DNA from: an uncultured Chloroflexia bacterium
Lineage (GTDB): Bacteria > Chloroflexota > Anaerolineae > Anaerolineales > RBG-16-64-43
Reading direction: 5' to 3'
NCBI GenBank assembly: GCA_963780865.1
Contig: CAWADT010000006.1
Location: 20,858 to 84,857, forward strand
Length of the DNA stretch: 64,000 nucleotides
Numbering within the stretch: the first letter of the stretch is position 1; every line of letters begins with the position of its first letter. The notes beneath the pieces were generated by a model. It had not been told where the DNA came from, did not search any database, and was given only the letters and a program-made list of their open reading frames with translations. This document shows, in pieces, positions 1,993 through 33,730 of the stretch. Both the position numbers and the translations under genes were made by a program.

Positions 1993-2406
1993 TCACCCCT
2001 TGCGATATTTCCGCGCCGCGTCCAGCCGCAGCTGCGAGCGGCGCAGGGAGGTCATCGCCTTGAGGTAGGCCTCGTTGGTCTGGTCCGGCGCGTGCTTGAG
2101 CATTTCCTCGGCCCGCGCCTTGGCCGCCTCGGCCCGCGCCACGTCGATCTCCTCCACCCGTTCGCCCACGTCCGCCAGCACCGTCACCGCGTCCGGCAGC
2201 ACCTCCATGATCCCGCCCGCGATCGCGAAGGCTTCCTCCCGGCCGGCTTGCTTTACCACCAGCACGCCGTAGGTGAGCGAAGTCAGGAGCGGCGTATGGT
2301 GCGGAAAAATCCCGAGCAGACCTTCGCTGCCGGGGGCGACGACCATATCCGCGTCCCCGGAGAAGAGCGATCGATCCTGGCTGACGATATCGCAATGGAT
2401 GGGCAA
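1993..2406 (-). CDS. atpC: F1 ATP synthase epsilon subunit
   Basis: 137 aa. DIVSQDRSLFSGDADMVVAPGSEGLLGIFPHHTPLLT followed by a helical C-terminus. Lies directly downstream of atpD. Confidence 0.9.
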   Translation of the reverse strand: MPIHCDIVSQDRSLFSGDADMVVAPGSEGLLGIFPHHTPLLTSLTYGVLVVKQAGREEAFAIAGGIMEVLPDAVTVLADVGERVEEIDVARAEAAKARAEEMLKHAPDQTNEAYLKAMTSLRRSQLRLDAARKYRKG

Positions 2407-2424
2407 GTTCGAGTCCTTTTTATT

Positions 2425-2517
2425 CCCTCATCCCGTCGGGAGAGCACCGACTCCCTTCTCCCAGCGCCTGCCCCTGCGAAGCGGGGGTATGGTGGGAGAA
2501 GGGTTGGGGATGAGGGG
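2425..2517. repeat. REP-like imperfect palindrome (ccctcatcc ... cttctccca ... tgggagaagg ... ggatgaggg) in the atpD-atpC spacer
   Basis: Inverted arms read directly from the sequence. The same arm sequences recur at 6992-7076. Confidence 0.6.
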
Positions 2518-2519
2518 TG

Positions 2520-3965
<1,446 letters not shown>

Positions 3966-28213: not shown

Positions 28214-29345
28214 TTGAAAAAAGCATTCTTCATCTTGTTTTTGTTGGCGCTGCTTATGGCAGGATGCAAAACGGCTTCCAACCAGGCTCCGTCTCTCGAG
28301 CCAGCCTCCGCCCGGGCAGTCACCGCCTCGTCCACAGCTTTGGTTTCCCCGACCCTGGAGATGCAGGAACAGGCAACGGTAACACCCCGGAATACGGAAA
28401 CCGCCACGCCCCTTGCCCATTTGGGGATGGGGGACGGGCATCTGGTCGTTTATTCGCCCGACGGCAAATTTCTGGCCATCGGTTTTGCCAATGGAATTGC
28501 CGTGCTGGATGCACGCACGCTTCAGGAATTAAAACTTATCCGTAGCTCTTCCTATGTTAGCTTCGTCCTATTTTCTTCCGACAGCCGATTCCTGATCACC
28601 AGCGGGTCGGAAGAGGGAACCGTCGAATTTCGGAACGTGGACGATTGGTCGCTGGCGAGGACGATGACGATTGGCTCCGTCTCGGTGATTGGGGCGGCCG
28701 TCTCTCCTGACGGGAAGCTACTGGCGACGATTAGCGATTTCGGAATATATGATCAGGTTATGGAATCTCTCCGACGGTTCCCTGATTCGCGAGCTCTCCA
28801 GCAATTTCTCGTTTATTCGGTGCTTGGCGTTTTCACCGGACGGAACGATGCTGGCTTCCGGATCGGAGGACTATACCGTGCGGTTGTGGCGCGTCGCGGA
28901 TGGATCCGAACGGATGAAATTGGGCAAGGAATTGGGACCCTCGGCGGGGGCCGAATGGAGCACGGTTCTCAGCGTCGCCTTTTCCCCGGATGGGAAAACG
29001 CTCGCTTCCGCGTCGGGTTACGGATTTATTCATTTGTGGAGCGTCTCGGACGGATCGCAATTGAAAAAAGTCGACGAAAAATTTTCTTTGGAAAGGAAGA
29101 TAAAAGTTGTATTCTCCCCGGACGGGAAGTCGATCGCGTATGGTTCTATGATGGAGAATATTATCCGCGTGAGGAATGCCGCCACAATGGATCTGGCGGC
29201 CACCCTGGAGGGGCATACGGATGTCGTCTTCGATATTGCCTACCGTCCGGATGGGAGCGAGCTGGCTTCGGTTTCGCGAGACGGGACTCTCAGGACGTGG
29301 AAGATGCCGGAAGGATCGGCCTTGGTGACTCTTATCCTCAACTAA
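28214..29345 (+). CDS. WD40-repeat lipoprotein; one frame break
   Basis: TTG start after AGGAGG. Lipobox LLMAGC. Repeated SPDGK/SPDG...LASxS units. ORFs 28214-29506 and 28689-29345 join at about 28731-28760 (..GKLLATISDF / IRLWNLSDGS..). Confidence 0.7.
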
Positions 29346-29575
29346 TCCGTATCCCTGCGTTTTGTCCTCTGGCAAAGGCATCACAGACACCGGAGGAAAT
29401 GAATCGCGACTTCCGCTCGATGCCGGGGTCGGAAAAAATTTTCCCGGGCTACGCTAACGAAAGAAATTGGATATTGGGTCGTGGTTCCTTTTCGGCGCAG
29501 CGGTAAATCCCTCTGAGGTTCGTTCCCGTAGTGAATCGTCAATAAAGCCAAAGTCGATTATTATTATCGCTCATC

Positions 29576-30193
29576 ATGGAAGAACGAACCCTGCTCGATA
29601 ACGCGCGCCGGGGCGATGTAGACGCATTCAACCAATTGGTGCTGGCCCATCAGAGCCACGCCTATTCCTTCGCCTACCGGATGCTCGGCGAGAAGGAAAG
29701 CGCGGCCGACGCCGCGCAGCAGGCGTTCCTCTCCGCCTACCGCCACCTCGGCGAGCTGCGGGGCGAATCGTTCCGATCCTGGCTGCTGCGGATCGTGGCC
29801 AACGCCTGCCTCGACGAACTGCGCCGGCGCAAGCGCCGGCCCGCCGTCTCGCTCGAGGACCTGGCCGCCGGCGAGGACGGAGACCGCAGCGAGGAATCCC
29901 TCTCCATCCTGGCCGATCCGGCCATAGGGCCGGAAGCGGCCGCCATCCGGTCGGACCTACGCCATTCGATCGAGGATTGCCTCGCGCTTCTGCCCCCCGA
30001 GCAGCGCGCGACCGTGCTGCTGGTGGACGTGCACGCCATGGATTACGCCGAGACGGCGCGCACGCTGCGCGTCGCGCTGGGCACCATCAAGAGCCGCGTG
30101 GCCCGCGCCCGGGCCGATCTGCGGGATTGCCTCCGCGCCAAAGGGGAACTTCCGCCGCCGGCGCGCCGTCTGGAGAGTGAGGCGCGCGCATGA
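29576..30193 (+). CDS. ECF-type RNA polymerase sigma factor (sigma-70 family)
   Basis: Region 2 FNQLVLAHQSHAYSFAYRML...WLLRIVANACLDELRRR and region 4 MDYAETARTLRVALGTIKSRVARAR. Confidence 0.85.
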   Translation: MEERTLLDNARRGDVDAFNQLVLAHQSHAYSFAYRMLGEKESAADAAQQAFLSAYRHLGELRGESFRSWLLRIVANACLDELRRRKRRPAVSLEDLAAGEDGDRSEESLSILADPAIGPEAAAIRSDLRHSIEDCLALLPPEQRATVLLVDVHAMDYAETARTLRVALGTIKSRVARARADLRDCLRAKGELPPPARRLESEARA

Positions 30194-31044
30194 ATTCCCC
30201 GGAAAGGCTCGACCCGCAACTGCTGGAATTGTTATCGGCCTATCTCGATGGCCGGCTGGAAGGCGCGGAGAGGACCGCCCTGGAAGCGCGACTTAATAAT
30301 GAAGAGAACCTCCGCCGGCAGCTGGTGGAATTGCGCTCGGTCCGGGATTCACTTCGCGCGCTGCCCTTGTTAACACCGCCGCGCTCGTTTGCGCTGACCC
30401 CGGCGATGGCCGGGAAGGCGGCGGGAAAACCGGCTGTTTTCACACCGCGCCGGATGGCATTCGGCTCGGCGCTGGCCTCTCTGGCGTTTGTCTGTGTGCT
30501 TTCATTGGAAGTGCTTTCCCGCGGGGTTTTCCTTCCAGCGGCGAGCGCTCCCCGGGCGCTATCGGTGAATGAGTCGCTGGCCGGTCCGCGGCCGTCCGAG
30601 ACGGAAACCGGCGCCGGGAAATCCGCCGCGGTCGCCGCCACTTCTGCTCCCGCGGCGACCGAGCTTCCCCCGTCCGCCGCCACTGCGCAGGCGGTCACCG
30701 GCTCCGGCAATTCCGTTCCAACCGAGACGCCCACGGAGGCGCCGGTTACGCCCCTGATGCTTGGAGGCGGCTGCGGAGAATGTTCTCCAACCGAAACGCC
30801 GACAATCGAACCCTCACCGACGGCAACGTTTAATTTTCCCGAATGCGGTTGCCATCCGACGAAGGTGCAGCCGGCTATTTTGGCCTCTACCGCCGTGGTT
30901 TCTCCGAGCAGGAGTTCTCAGCAATCCATCCGCGTTGATGTTCAAACCGCCACCCCGTTTGTGGAGGCGTTCTTCGGGCTGGCCGCCGTCTTGCTGGCCG
31001 CCGCGGCCGCGCTGACCGCAGTTTTCTCGCGCCGGCGGCATTGA
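30190..31044 (+). CDS. putative anti-sigma factor, membrane-anchored with a Pro/Thr/Ala-rich outer region
   Basis: 4-nt overlap with the sigma gene. N-terminal LLELLSAYLDGRLEGAERTALEARL is typical of anti-sigma N-domains. One central and one C-terminal TM segment. Confidence 0.65.
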   Translation: MNSPERLDPQLLELLSAYLDGRLEGAERTALEARLNNEENLRRQLVELRSVRDSLRALPLLTPPRSFALTPAMAGKAAGKPAVFTPRRMAFGSALASLAFVCVLSLEVLSRGVFLPAASAPRALSVNESLAGPRPSETETGAGKSAAVAATSAPAATELPPSAATAQAVTGSGNSVPTETPTEAPVTPLMLGGGCGECSPTETPTIEPSPTATFNFPECGCHPTKVQPAILASTAVVSPSRSSQQSIRVDVQTATPFVEAFFGLAAVLLAAAAALTAVFSRRRH

Positions 31045-31053
31045 CCGAGAATT

Positions 31054-31572
31054 TTGAGAATCGATATGCCAAAAAATATTCCCCTAAAAATCCGCCCTCT
31101 CTTGCCGGAGGATTGGCCCGCGGTCAGAGCCATTTTCCAGGAAGGCATTGACACTCGCAATGCCACCTTCGAAGACCAACCCCCGGACTGGGGAGAATGG
31201 GATTCCTCTCATCTCCGGGACGGCAGGATGGTTGCCGCCCTGGATGGAAAGGTGGTCGCCTGGGCGTCGCTCACTTCCGTTTCCGGCCGGTGCGTGTATT
31301 CCGGGGTGGCGGAAGTCAGCATTTATATCGCCGCGGCGATGCGCGGGAAGGGGATCGGCGGAACGCTGCTGGAAGCGCTGATCATGGAATCCGAGCGGAA
31401 AGGGTACTGGACGCTCCAGGCGGGGATCTTCCCGGAAAACGAAGCCTCCATGGCTCTCCATCAAAAATGCGGATTTAAGATCGTCGGCCGGCGCGACCGG
31501 CTTGGCAAGATGGACAACCGTTGGCGGGACGTGATGCTGTTGGAAAGGCGCAGCAGCGTCGCCGGAAGCTAG
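31054..31572 (+). CDS. GNAT N-acetyltransferase (phosphinothricin acetyltransferase-like)
   Basis: IRPLLPEDWPAVRAIFQEGIDTRNATFE ... RGKGIGGTLLEALI ... ENEASMALHQKCGFKIVG. Confidence 0.8.
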   Translation: MRIDMPKNIPLKIRPLLPEDWPAVRAIFQEGIDTRNATFEDQPPDWGEWDSSHLRDGRMVAALDGKVVAWASLTSVSGRCVYSGVAEVSIYIAAAMRGKGIGGTLLEALIMESERKGYWTLQAGIFPENEASMALHQKCGFKIVGRRDRLGKMDNRWRDVMLLERRSSVAGS

Positions 31573-31679
31573 CGGATTTCCTCGGCGCCCGGTTTCCGTT
31601 CCCGAAGGCGCCCCTCGCGTTTTTTCCCACGGCGGATGGTATATAATCTTTGCATTCGCCGTTCCAAGGGGAACGCTCC

Positions 31680-32390
31680 ATGAACTGGCTTCAACGATTA
31701 TTCTCCCGGCCCGAAAAACAACCTCCCCTCGAGCAAAAATCCGCGCCGCCGGCCGCGGTTCCTCCCCCCGCCGCGGCTCCCGTTCTCCCCCCGGCTGCCG
31801 ATTCCCGCGACCAAGCCGAGAGCCATCTGCGCGAGGTGCAGGCCAAAACCAACAAGCTGGCGGAAGACTTCGCCCGCGGGGAAATCAACCGCTCCACCTT
31901 CATTCACCTCTACGAACATTATCAGCAGCAGCGCCAGGCCATCGAGCGGTTGCTGGAGATCTCGCCGGAGAGCTGGCGCGAAGCCGTCAGCCAGGGGAAG
32001 AGCATCGCCATCCGCCGAGAACATTTTGCCAAGCCTCTGGGATTTTCCATCTACGAGAACGCTTCGGGCATGCCGCTTTCGACGCTCGGCAAGTTCGATC
32101 TGGACCCGGCGCTGATGGTGCCGATGCTTTCCTCCTACCGCGAAGCCGCGCGCGAGATGTTCGGCTCGCGGATGCGCTCCACCCAGATCGAGAACGGCCG
32201 TTGGGTGTGCTTCGTCTCGGGTCAATTCACCACGCTGATCGCGCTCTATAACACCGAACCCGCCGCGCGGCAGCTGCAGCTGATGGAAGAGACGCACCTG
32301 TTTTTCGAACGCGCCAACAAGCCCAGGTTGCAGCAATCGCCGATCAACCTCGACGGGATGGTCTTCCCCCACGAGTATTACCTGCAGTAG
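31680..32390 (+). CDS. hypothetical protein: Pro-rich N-terminus, coiled coil, C-terminal Roadblock/LC7-like region (tentative)
   Basis: ATG 31680 follows TATAAT (31642-31647) and AAGGGGA. The C-terminal 120 aa (GFSIYENASGMPLSTLG...RWVCFVSGQFTTLIALYNTE...) has the alternating pattern I associate with Roadblock/MglB folds. 29 nt upstream of a small GTPase gene. Confidence 0.55.
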   Translation: MNWLQRLFSRPEKQPPLEQKSAPPAAVPPPAAAPVLPPAADSRDQAESHLREVQAKTNKLAEDFARGEINRSTFIHLYEHYQQQRQAIERLLEISPESWREAVSQGKSIAIRREHFAKPLGFSIYENASGMPLSTLGKFDLDPALMVPMLSSYREAAREMFGSRMRSTQIENGRWVCFVSGQFTTLIALYNTEPAARQLQLMEETHLFFERANKPRLQQSPINLDGMVFPHEYYLQ

Positions 32391-32419
32391 CCAATCCCCG
32401 CTCTCCAAGGAGCCTGAAG

Positions 32420-32917
32420 ATGTCGGACATCCCCCTGTATAAAATCTCGATCGCGGGCGATGAAGCCGTCGGGAAAACCTCCCTCATCCGGCGATATTGC
32501 GAGGGCAAGTTCGAAGAGTCGCGCGTCGCCACCATCGGCGTGGATTTCCAGACGAAGGTGGTCGAGCTGCCCTTGGGCGCGGTTAAGCTTTCCATCTGGG
32601 ATATGGCCGGGCAATCCCGCTTCGAAGTGGTGCGGACGGGGATGTACCGCGGCAGCCGCGCGACGGCGCTGGTGTTCGATCTTTCCAATCCGGCCACGCT
32701 CCAGCACCTCCCCGCTTGGCGCAACGAGGCGCAGACCAACGCGAAAGGCACAAAGCTCCTAGTGGTCGGCAACAAATTGGATCTGGCCGCGGAGCGCGGC
32801 GCCGGAAAAGCGTTCGCGGATACCATCGGCGCGGCCTACGTCGAAACCAGCGCGCAAACCGGCGAAGGCGTGGCGGAGCTGTTCACCGCGCTGGCCGCAC
32901 TGGCGGCGCAAGCATGA
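32420..32917 (+). CDS. Ras-superfamily small GTPase, Rab/Ras-like rather than MglA-like
   Basis: G1 GDEAVGKTS, switch I TIGVDF, G3 WDMAGQSRF, G4 GNKLD, G5 ETSAQ. 165 aa, no CAAX box. Confidence 0.85.
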   Translation: MSDIPLYKISIAGDEAVGKTSLIRRYCEGKFEESRVATIGVDFQTKVVELPLGAVKLSIWDMAGQSRFEVVRTGMYRGSRATALVFDLSNPATLQHLPAWRNEAQTNAKGTKLLVVGNKLDLAAERGAGKAFADTIGAAYVETSAQTGEGVAELFTALAALAAQA

Positions 32918-32963
32918 TCTGAACGCGCCCGGATTATTGCACCACCGGCTTTGCGGACGACTC

Positions 32964-33730
32964 ATGTGGACCGGACGAAGAATCCCCTACCTGTATAATA
33001 AATACCTTCGAGGAGTCCGTCTGGATAAATCGCCCATCTTCATTGTTGGATGCGGCCATAGCGGCACTTCCCTGATACATGCAATTCTGGATTCCCATTC
33101 GAGAATATTTGCCATTCCTCCCGAGACTCGCGTCGGATTTAGAAAAATCCCGAGCCTTGGTTCCGTACATTCGCCTTTGCGACCATTAGCGCCGGGAAAC
33201 GCCGCTGGGTGGAGAAAACTCCCAAGCATATCCATCGGATGGAATACCTTTGGCAATTGCTCCCGGATGCAAAATTCCTTCTCGTCCTGCGCGATGGGCG
33301 GGATGTAGCTTGTTCCATCCAAGAACGAACGGGAGATTTGGAGTCCGGGATCCGGCGATGGGTGACAGACAACCTGGCCGGGGAGAAATATTGGGGAAAT
33401 CCGCAGGTTTGCTTGGTCCGATACGAGTTGCTTATCCTTGAATTCGAGAATACCATTGCCCGCATTCTGGATTTTCTCGGAGAGGAATATGAGGTTGGAT
33501 TAAAAGAATATTACCGCAAGCCCCGATTATTCTATGCGGATGTCATTGAAAAACCGGCCGGTATTTTTGGGGATAACCATGCTCAATACCGCAATTGGCA
33601 GATTAATCAACCGCTCTTCGATGGCCGTGGAAAATGGATGCGGATGACCGGAGAAGAGAAGCGTGTTTTCAAAGTATTGGCCGGCGAATTGCTGGAAAGA
33701 TACGGCTATGCCGACGGGATGGATTGGTGA
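32964..33730 (+). CDS. sulfotransferase; one frame break in an A5 run
   Basis: PIFIVGCGHSGTSLI (PSB loop) lies in ORF 32937-33308. WVEKTPKHIHRMEYL...FLLVLRDGRDVACS lies in ORF 33209-33730. The join is at AAAAA 33143-33147. Confidence 0.7.

Follow-up and report, generated by a model that had tools for sequence, protein, structure and literature searches.

Operons in which a Roadblock protein is encoded together with a small GTPase are an established design in bacteria, represented by the MglB/MglA systems and by the actinobacterial conservon. MglB forms a dimeric platform and stimulates GTP hydrolysis by bringing the GTPase's own residues into position. The only bacterial Roadblock partners of small GTPases that have been characterised (MglB, CvnB/MfpD type) are described mainly as GTPase-activating proteins (GAPs) (PMC4316618, PMC9481161). 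None of the 121 Rup-clade proteins in a 2014 survey, the only systematic one of prokaryotic Ras-like GTPases, was coupled to MglB (PMC4316618), and in the Asgard strain MK-D1 GTPase and Roadblock genes do not as a rule share an operon (PMC10933270). Here we analysed a stretch of 64,000 nucleotides from an uncultured Chloroflexia bacterium (assembly GCA_963780865.1, contig CAWADT010000006.1, positions 20,858 to 84,857, forward strand), hereafter the window, in which the gene of a Rab-like GTPase follows the gene of an unannotated protein, hereafter the partner. The best overall explanation of the data, to which we give a probability of roughly 60%, is a two-gene switch module composed of the Rab-like GTPase and an upstream Roadblock regulator, most likely a GAP of the MglB style. 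What is new with respect to the known operons is a GTPase of the eukaryote-like branch, a Roadblock partner that is invisible to sequence profiles, and additional conserved modules in this partner.

Analysis of one genome per GTDB species indicates that relatives of the partner are encoded in 145 species genomes, and all named carriers belong to the class Anaerolineae of the Chloroflexota (Anaerolineales, Promineifilaceae, Ardenticatenales, Leptofilum and Leptolinea). Gene neighbourhoods were counted on the best 80 partner loci. Of these loci, 79 extend far enough past the partner gene, and in 76 of them the GTPase gene comes next on the same strand, with an apparent gap, as located by tblastn, of -2 to 137 nt; over the linked loci the identity ranges from 42 to 87% for the partner and from 48 to 91% for the GTPase. 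Clustering of the open reading frames (ORFs) of the 80 loci revealed no third conserved gene, since no other family was found in more than 14 loci, and the partner and the GTPase therefore constitute a self-contained two-gene module conserved across the Anaerolineae. An earlier note, made from the letters of the window alone, had reported ORFs of 236 and 165 residues separated by 29 nt and had proposed that they are co-transcribed; both coordinates proved exact, and the adjacency on the same strand backs the proposal. A scan of the spacer predicted no terminator-like site between the two genes. Both ORFs can be taken as real genes because their homologues are numerous, with 98 for the partner (E≤5.8e-51, all labelled 'hypothetical' and without a Pfam domain) and 1107 for the GTPase (E≤1e-10). 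No paralogues were found in the window, and literature searches on such a pairing in Chloroflexi or Anaerolineae found nothing.

The partner defines an unannotated protein family, which comprises 281 clusters at 50% identity in an exhaustive search and for which there is no Pfam model. Comparison of the partner with Pfam, NCBIfam, PADLOC and PDB sequences (phmmer) and of the profile of its family with PDB sequences (hmmsearch) gave no credible match. Its structure was predicted by AlphaFold2 in two runs, one with the full-length protein and an alignment of 42 sequences and another with residues 94-236 and an alignment of 105 sequences. The full-length model reached a mean predicted local distance difference test (pLDDT) of 80 and a predicted template modelling score (pTM) of 0.72, and the model of residues 94-236, which has the same layout, a pLDDT of 88.6 and a pTM of 0.80. 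The predicted elements are α1 (96-114), β1 (119-126), β2 (132-137), α2 (143-160), β3 (166-169), β4 (175-180), β5 (184-190) and α3 (196-212). Roadblock domains have the order α-ββ-α-βββ-α, whereas longin domains have the order ββ-α-βββ-αα and lack the N-terminal helix (Levine et al., PMC3747258); the model of the partner has the N-terminal helix of the Roadblock order plus a long C-terminal helix.

The top Foldseek matches in the PDB were, for both models and with a probability of 1.00, Roadblock/LC7 proteins. Among them are LAMTOR/Ragulator, dynein LC7, a Streptomyces protein (3kye), the C-terminal domains of Rag proteins, MglB (6hjm, 6izw_C), MglC and the Asgard proteins Roadblock, Roadblock2 and Roadblock3 (7yh1, 9jq8, 9jue). 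After the Roadblock proteins, and at similar E-values, come longins such as Sec22b, COPZ1, TRAPP, Mon1-Ccz1 and AP2 sigma, and CPLANE subunits also match; in either search, Roadblock/LC7 and longin proteins make up the large majority of the top 50 matches. Modest E-values (4e-4 to 5e-3) go with target-normalised template modelling (TM) scores of 0.5-0.6. Element order and similarity to solved domains, which together make up the structural definition of a Roadblock domain, are both found in the predicted structure, and the C-terminal half of the partner very probably adopts a Roadblock-type fold. The earlier note had described the upstream protein as Roadblock-like and had named the lack of any Roadblock- or longin-like fold as the point on which this view would fall; AlphaFold2 and Foldseek, which address this point, predict the fold. 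The note was right to place it at the C-terminal end, but a third of the protein was too small an extent, as residues 96-212 amount to about half of it. With the full-length model, Foldseek also returned alignments of 161-237 columns to 2gnx, a hypothetical protein of mouse, and to KICSTOR chains (9o5a_F, 9van_D) at a TM-score of about 0.3, which hints at a shared helical-plus-Roadblock arrangement and is too weak to interpret.

The GTPase matches the Pfam model Ras (PF00071) with an E-value of 6.9e-40 and 136.7 bits (cut-off 21.6) and TIGR00231 with 2.9e-23 and 82.4 bits (cut-off 42.5). With these scores above the curated cut-offs and with motifs G1 to G5 present, the protein has the attributes of a Ras superfamily member. 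Its 60 best PDB sequence matches are all Rab/Ypt/Sec4 proteins (E about 1e-30 to 2e-26), among them a Thorarchaeota Rab (7ezb, E 1.7e-27). A profile of 76 orthologues scored 146-165 bits with Rabs, 116 with Ran, 97 with RhoA, 95 with HRAS, 33 with Arf1 and 22 with MglA, in a panel whose MglA sequence agrees in full with PDB 6hjh_A, whose Sec4 and Rab14 were taken from the PDB matches and whose other sequences were typed in. The similarity is thus highest to Rab over Ras, Rho, Ran and Arf, as is the criterion for a Rab, and the orthologues carry the NCBI name 'Rab family GTPase'. Members of the MglA family are defined by a G3 motif TVPGQ or GTPGQ, without Asp (PMC4316618). We ruled out MglA as the identity of this GTPase by its DMAGQ motif, by the low profile score and by BLASTP against M. 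xanthus MglA, which gave no significant similarity (16.5 bits, E 0.21). This agrees with the earlier note, which had set the GTPase apart from the MglA type and would have given this up had it clustered with MglA; the four motifs that it had listed, WDMAGQSRF, TIGVDF, NKLD and ETSA, were all located (residues 60-68, 38-43, 118-121 and 142-145). Rup group 1 proteins lack the G3 Gln and have as neighbours DUFX, DUFY/OmpA-like, DGC or histidine-kinase/signalling-output genes (PMC4316618); this group was likewise ruled out, by the presence of Gln65 in 75 of the 76 orthologues and by the different neighbourhood.

Taken together, the motif and score criteria place the GTPase on the eukaryote-like (Rup/Rab-like, non-MglA) branch. 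The five Rab family motifs RabF1 to RabF5, said to have been defined by Pereira-Leal and Seabra in 2000, are reportedly IGVDF, KLQIW, RFrsiT, YYRGA and LVYDIT. RabF1 is exact in the GTPase and invariant among its orthologues, and the other motifs are partial: KLSIW agrees at 4 of 5 positions, RFEVVR in RF alone, MYRGS at 3 of 5, and LVFDLS corresponds to an orthologue consensus of LVYDVT. A prenylatable Cys motif is absent from the C-terminus of the GTPase, which ends in LAALAAQA, and no Cys is present in the last 20 residues of 13 sampled orthologues, whose tails vary. Judged by these partial RabF2-F5 motifs and by the lack of a C-terminal Cys motif, the protein does not appear to be a bona fide eukaryotic Rab.

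The conservation of individual GTPase residues was counted in an alignment of the 76 orthologues. The protein appears to have a complete catalytic set, made up of the P-loop, Thr38, DxxGQ with Gln65, NKxD and ETSA. The position equivalent to Gly12 of Ras is Glu15 in the window (codon 32462-32464), and 64 of the 76 orthologues have Gly, 9 have Glu and 3 have Ala; Glu is the residue of the clade of the window. The GTPase of this clade may cycle differently from the others, because in Ras substitutions at the Gly12 position impair GAP-stimulated hydrolysis. Arg35 stands three residues before the switch I Thr38; the same position is occupied by Phe in Sec4 and Cys in Rab14 in the PDB alignments, and by Tyr in the typed panel sequences of Rab1A and Ran.

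A distant subfamily of the partner, with about 205 residues and around 30% identity, lacks the N-terminal extension. Linkage of this subfamily to a GTPase was discarded, since no Ras gene was adjacent in any of the five sampled loci. Comparison of conservation between two identity groups indicated that α2 (0.78) and β3 (0.82), with the motif DPALxVPMLSSYRxATxEIFG...RSTQIE, rank first among all elements in partners that share at least 40% identity with the partner of the window (the linked type), whereas the same α2 (0.26) and β3 (0.29) rank last in members below 36% identity. Both groups share the hairpin motif and an FExAN motif in α3. The dimer interface of solved Roadblock platforms consists of β3 and the top helix, and it is a face of this helix that binds the GTPase (PMC3747258). 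Because α2 and β3 correspond to this surface, the subfamily-specific constraint seems to fall where the GTPase-binding platform would be, which gives indirect support to such a platform. Directly after a distant family member of about 208 residues (locus L081, 370-996) comes another paralogue of this family (1243-1353), a tandem pair reminiscent of heterodimeric Roadblock pairs. In four sampled loci of the subfamily of about 205 residues, L083 (4691-4915), L084, L086 (4695-4919) and L087, a conserved ORF of 74 residues precedes the gene; it ends in an amphipathic LLTRLLRAITGRR or FFARLIRTITGKK, which loosely resembles the NWLQRLF motif of the long form. A convergent gene with a LysM domain lies downstream in the same four loci and in L090.

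The part of the partner that precedes the Roadblock-like domain also shows conservation. The coiled coil of the earlier note exists as a helical region but is predicted as a two-helix hairpin (residues 40-93), in which each of K56, G67, Q73, F74 and Y81 is kept by at least 90% of 105 diverse family members. Its Pro-rich region was confirmed, with 11 Pro and 8 Ala in residues 10-45. The N-terminal peptide would be amphipathic if helical (hydrophobic moment 0.68-0.79) and might, as a conjecture, anchor the protein to a membrane or to another protein. None of the ten longest family members is a fusion of the partner to a GTPase; their extensions are of low complexity, except that one contains TIR_2. 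In this protein of 326 residues (P0225; locus L082, 298-1278, on a short contig), TIR_2 (E 2.4e-15) forms an N-terminal domain joined to the hairpin and the Roadblock-like core.

From these data we infer how the module might work, including physical binding, dimerisation, the direction of regulation, that is GAP or guanine nucleotide exchange factor (GEF), and the cellular role in filamentous Anaerolineae. By comparison with MglB, LAMTOR and the Rag C-terminal domains, the partner would dimerise through β3 and α2, and the α2 'top' face of the dimer would be the platform on which the GTPase docks. The partner would then act as an MglB-style GAP that adds no catalytic residue and repositions the Gln65 of the GTPase itself, possibly together with Arg35. 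The hairpin is conjectured to be an accessory element, and the amphipathic peptide, held on the flexible Pro-rich tether, to localise the complex. That the two proteins form a cognate pair of Roadblock-type regulator and GTPase is, in our judgement, probable; that the partner is specifically a GAP, by analogy with known partners, is more tentative and has somewhat less than an even chance. A GAP is favoured because the characterised bacterial Roadblock partners are described as such, and a GAP without an arginine finger because no Arg of the partner is conserved across the 105 diverse members while the GTPase keeps Gln65 and Arg35. Insertion of an arginine finger in trans is disfavoured because Glu and Ala, both of which occur at the Gly12-equivalent position, would stand in its way.

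Several observations weigh against this explanation. The Roadblock assignment has the support of no sequence method, Robl_LC7 (PF03259) was matched by none of 105 diverse family members scanned with Pfam at E≤1, and the fold is a predicted one whose Foldseek matches combine modest E-values with query-normalised TM-scores of 0.4-0.55. The C-terminal domain could thus be a convergent or mispredicted α/β sandwich of the profilin or longin kind, for which the MglB analogy would be misleading; profilin and longin chains are indeed among the Foldseek matches (E about 1e-3 to 4e-3), at TM-scores of about 0.5. We consider this highly improbable, as the two AlphaFold2 runs, from different alignments, returned the same element order at high confidence, this order is that of Roadblock and not of longin domains, Roadblock/LC7 and longin proteins dominate the top matches, and a small GTPase is the genomic neighbour expected for a Roadblock fold. 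The linkage also has exceptions. Three loci from one Anaerolineaceae clade (L023, L034 and L040) carry the partner without an adjacent GTPase, and in one such genome, CP070708, a GTPase orthologue of 62% identity sits elsewhere, behind a membrane-anchored protein of 257 residues (locus L088, region 2206-3534). The latter was compared as a possible partner homologue and is unrelated; a ParA/MinD-like ATPase is encoded nearby. The metagenome-assembled genome with the orphan locus L040 also has a linked pair (L026), and a convergent ORF of some 640-650 residues, which we take from its sequence to be an ABC transporter, comes after each of the three orphan partners. Because the wider family has members without an adjacent GTPase, the Roadblock-like family is not obligately coupled to one. 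Part of the contrast in α2 and β3 reflects the lower overall divergence of the linked set, and the distant group was sampled at five loci. Finally, the role of Arg35 as a finger in cis is derived from its conservation and from the RxxT spacing before the switch I Thr, a spacing shared by the catalytic Arg of Gα.

The members that lack an adjacent GTPase, the family member with a TIR domain and the adaptor role of some Roadblock proteins, for instance dynein LC7, would also suit a partner that leaves the nucleotide cycle unregulated and is instead a downstream effector or adaptor, or a protein of unrelated function that is co-expressed. This appears improbable, as the adjacency persists in loci with partner identities of 42-87%, no further neighbour is conserved, and it is on the canonical platform elements that conservation is peculiar to the linked subfamily. 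The more serious question concerns the direction of regulation. The GAP assignment is weak because the GEF or scaffold role is commoner than the GAP role among Roadblock/longin platforms, which recruit extra elements 'more typically as GEF' (PMC3747258). In keeping with this, the partner could be a GEF or a membrane scaffold, like Ragulator for Rag or TRAPP and Mon1-Ccz1 for Rab, in which the hairpin opens the nucleotide pocket or the N-terminal peptide recruits the GTPase. The matches to LAMTOR/Ragulator, to the TRAPP core, to Mon1-Ccz1 and to CPLANE subunits speak for it, as do the Rab-like nature of the GTPase, given that the known longin and Roadblock regulators of Rabs are GEFs, and the extra conserved domain and amphipathic peptide of the partner. 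It is a serious alternative, though less likely than a GAP, since the characterised bacterial Roadblock partners are mainly GAPs and no nucleotide-displacing element can be identified in the partner sequence. A switch module with a Roadblock regulator, most likely of GAP type, is the explanation that we favour.

Features of the locus (positions in the window)
Feature	Position	Strand	Basis or remark
Candidate -10 box TATAAT	31642..31647	+	Sequence; 33 nt 5' of the partner start codon
Partner gene, 236 residues	31680..32390	+	ORF; ATG 31680, stop 32388-32390
N-terminal peptide MNWLQRLFS, residues 1-9	31680..31706	+	Consensus xxNWLxRL in homologue alignment
Pro/Ala-rich linker, residues 10-39	31707..31796	+	pLDDT 44-55; length very variable among homologues
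Helical hairpin, helices 40-65 and 71-93	31797..31958	+	AlphaFold2, pLDDT 88-98; motif K..LAEDFAxGxINRxQFxxLYxHYQ
Predicted Roadblock/LC7-like domain, residues 96-212	31965..32315	+	AlphaFold2; order α1-β1β2-α2-β3β4β5-α3
Helix α2 and strand β3, residues 143-169	32106..32186	+	Predicted dimer interface/GTPase-binding face, by analogy with MglB and LAMTOR (PMC3747258)
Intergenic spacer, 29 nt, with AAGGAG ribosome-binding site before the GTPase ATG	32391..32419	+	Sequence
Rab-like GTPase gene, 165 residues	32420..32917	+	ORF; ATG 32420, stop 32915-32917
P-loop GDEAVGKT, residues 13-20	32456..32479	+	G13, V17, G18, K19 and T20 invariant in 76 orthologues
Switch I RVATIGVDF, residues 35-43	32522..32548	+	R35 in 75/76 and T38 in 76/76 orthologues
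G3/switch II DMAGQ, residues 61-65	32600..32614	+	D61 and G64 invariant; catalytic-type Gln65 in 75/76
G4 NKLD, residues 118-121	32771..32782	+	N, K and D invariant in 76 orthologues
G5 ETSA, residues 142-145	32843..32854	+	TSA positions invariant in orthologue alignment

Upstream of the partner gene, the earlier note had placed a promoter -10 box. The TATAAT hexamer is exactly where it was reported and lies within the block GGATnnnATATAATC, which is kept in nine related loci whose remaining intergenic DNA has diverged, but no -35 box was found: a consensus promoter scanner returned no -35/-10 pair around it. A promoter role of the hexamer is plausible. We rejected a full sigma-70 promoter, as the scanner was negative and the conservation backs the -10 box alone; an extended -10 element (TGn), absent on a recount of the bases; and a conserved RNA structure in the 5' untranslated region, for which the alifold energy of -2 kcal/mol is unconvincing.

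The genes on the same strand before the partner encode an extracytoplasmic function (ECF) sigma factor (29576-30193), a zf-HC2 anti-sigma-like protein (30190-31044) that overlaps it, and a GNAT acetyltransferase (31054-31572). These genes were rejected as members of the module and are regarded as syntenic neighbours because they are common to the 9-10 closest relatives only. Directly 3' of the GTPase gene is a sulfotransferase gene (32937-33730, +) in two overlapping ORFs of different frames, of which 32937-33308 covers positions 1-33 and 33209-33730 positions 106-215 of the Sulfotransfer_3 profile; it is likely that the gene was split by a frameshift or a sequencing error. A WD40 beta-propeller gene (28214-29506, +) also appears to be split by a frameshift, as a pseudogene or through an assembly error: its ORF of 430 residues matches WD40 models in residues ~62-178 only, and an overlapping ORF in another frame (28689-29345) has strong WD40 repeats (E 2e-29).

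The pairing of a GTPase with a Roadblock or longin protein is a recurring design, seen in bacterial polarity (MglA/MglB), in Rag/Ragulator and in the GEF complexes of Rabs, and Roadblock/longin platforms figure in debates on the origin of the regulation of eukaryotic membrane traffic. With the partner fold taken as predicted, our data extend the Roadblock-GTPase partnership to the eukaryote-like (non-MglA) bacterial branch. The results also suggest that searches by sequence undercount Roadblock partners. The rarity of operon linkage in the Asgard strain MK-D1 hampers the assignment of cognate pairs, and the Anaerolineae locus offers a strongly conserved one-to-one pair and a tractable system of two proteins for the question of how a Roadblock platform regulates a Rab-type switch. 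A bolder reading, which we regard as doubtful, is that the Anaerolineae operon of a Rab-like GTPase and a Roadblock protein was vertically inherited, that the partnership is ancestral to the whole Ras superfamily with its Rab/Ras/Rag-like branch and is thus a speciality neither of MglA nor of Asgard archaea and eukaryotes, and that the module may embody a third catalytic design, in which Arg35 in cis (RxxT) and Gln65 are positioned by a Roadblock dimer with the hairpin as co-factor.

Among the known systems, MglA-MglB of Myxococcus xanthus and Thermus thermophilus resembles the module in that the gene of a small Ras superfamily GTPase adjoins that of a Roadblock-fold protein, and in some MglB-MglA loci the Roadblock gene also comes first and the GTPase gene second. 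The two differ in the GTPase, which is here Rab-like with a DxxGQ motif and scores far closer to Rabs than to MglA, and in the position of its Arg, since Arg53 of MglA adjoins the switch I Thr whereas Arg35 lies three residues before it. They also differ in the partner, which, unlike MglB, escapes detection as Robl_LC7 by sequence and is a protein of 236 residues with a hairpin, a Pro-rich linker and an N-terminal motif. The actinobacterial conservon, with the Roadblock protein CvnB/MfpD and the GTPase CvnD/MfpB, is likewise a Roadblock/LC7-GTPase operon. Its GTPase belongs to MglA group 2 (GTPGQ), and its operon also has a histidine kinase and CvnC (PMC4316618); neither such a GTPase, nor a histidine kinase, nor CvnC is conserved at the Anaerolineae loci.

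The Rup family (Wuichet & Søgaard-Andersen 2014, PMC4316618) is closer with respect to the GTPase, being bacterial, with eukaryote-like G1-G5 motifs and outside MglA. Members of Rup group 1 differ from the Anaerolineae GTPase, which keeps Gln65 and has the Roadblock-like partner as its sole conserved neighbour. In group 1 loci a coiled-coil gene, 'DUFX', adjoins rup (PMC4316618), and a Roadblock fold might be hidden in DUFX. Another chloroflexian, Sphaerobacter thermophilus, encodes an unclassified Rup of 167 residues, Sthe_1175, with no recognised neighbour (PMC4316618, Table S2), which may belong to the present GTPase family and have an unrecognised partner.

The eukaryotic platforms (Ragulator/LAMTOR, Rag C-terminal domains, TRAPP and Mon1-Ccz1) combine the same fold class with Rab- or Rag-type GTPases, and the best structural matches of the partner include chains of LAMTOR and of the Rag C-terminal domains. 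However, these platforms are complexes of several subunits whose main role on membranes is that of GEF or scaffold, whereas the Anaerolineae module is a bacterial operon of two genes whose GTPase has no lipidation motif. Asgard archaea (Tran et al. 2024, PMC10933270) also offer a prokaryotic Rab-like GTPase, an Arg in switch I is present in Thor-Rab, and the partner matches their Roadblock structures (7yh1, 9jq8, 9jue). In contrast to the genes of the Asgard strain MK-D1, the Anaerolineae pair is linked almost invariably and belongs to a bacterial lineage, the Chloroflexota.

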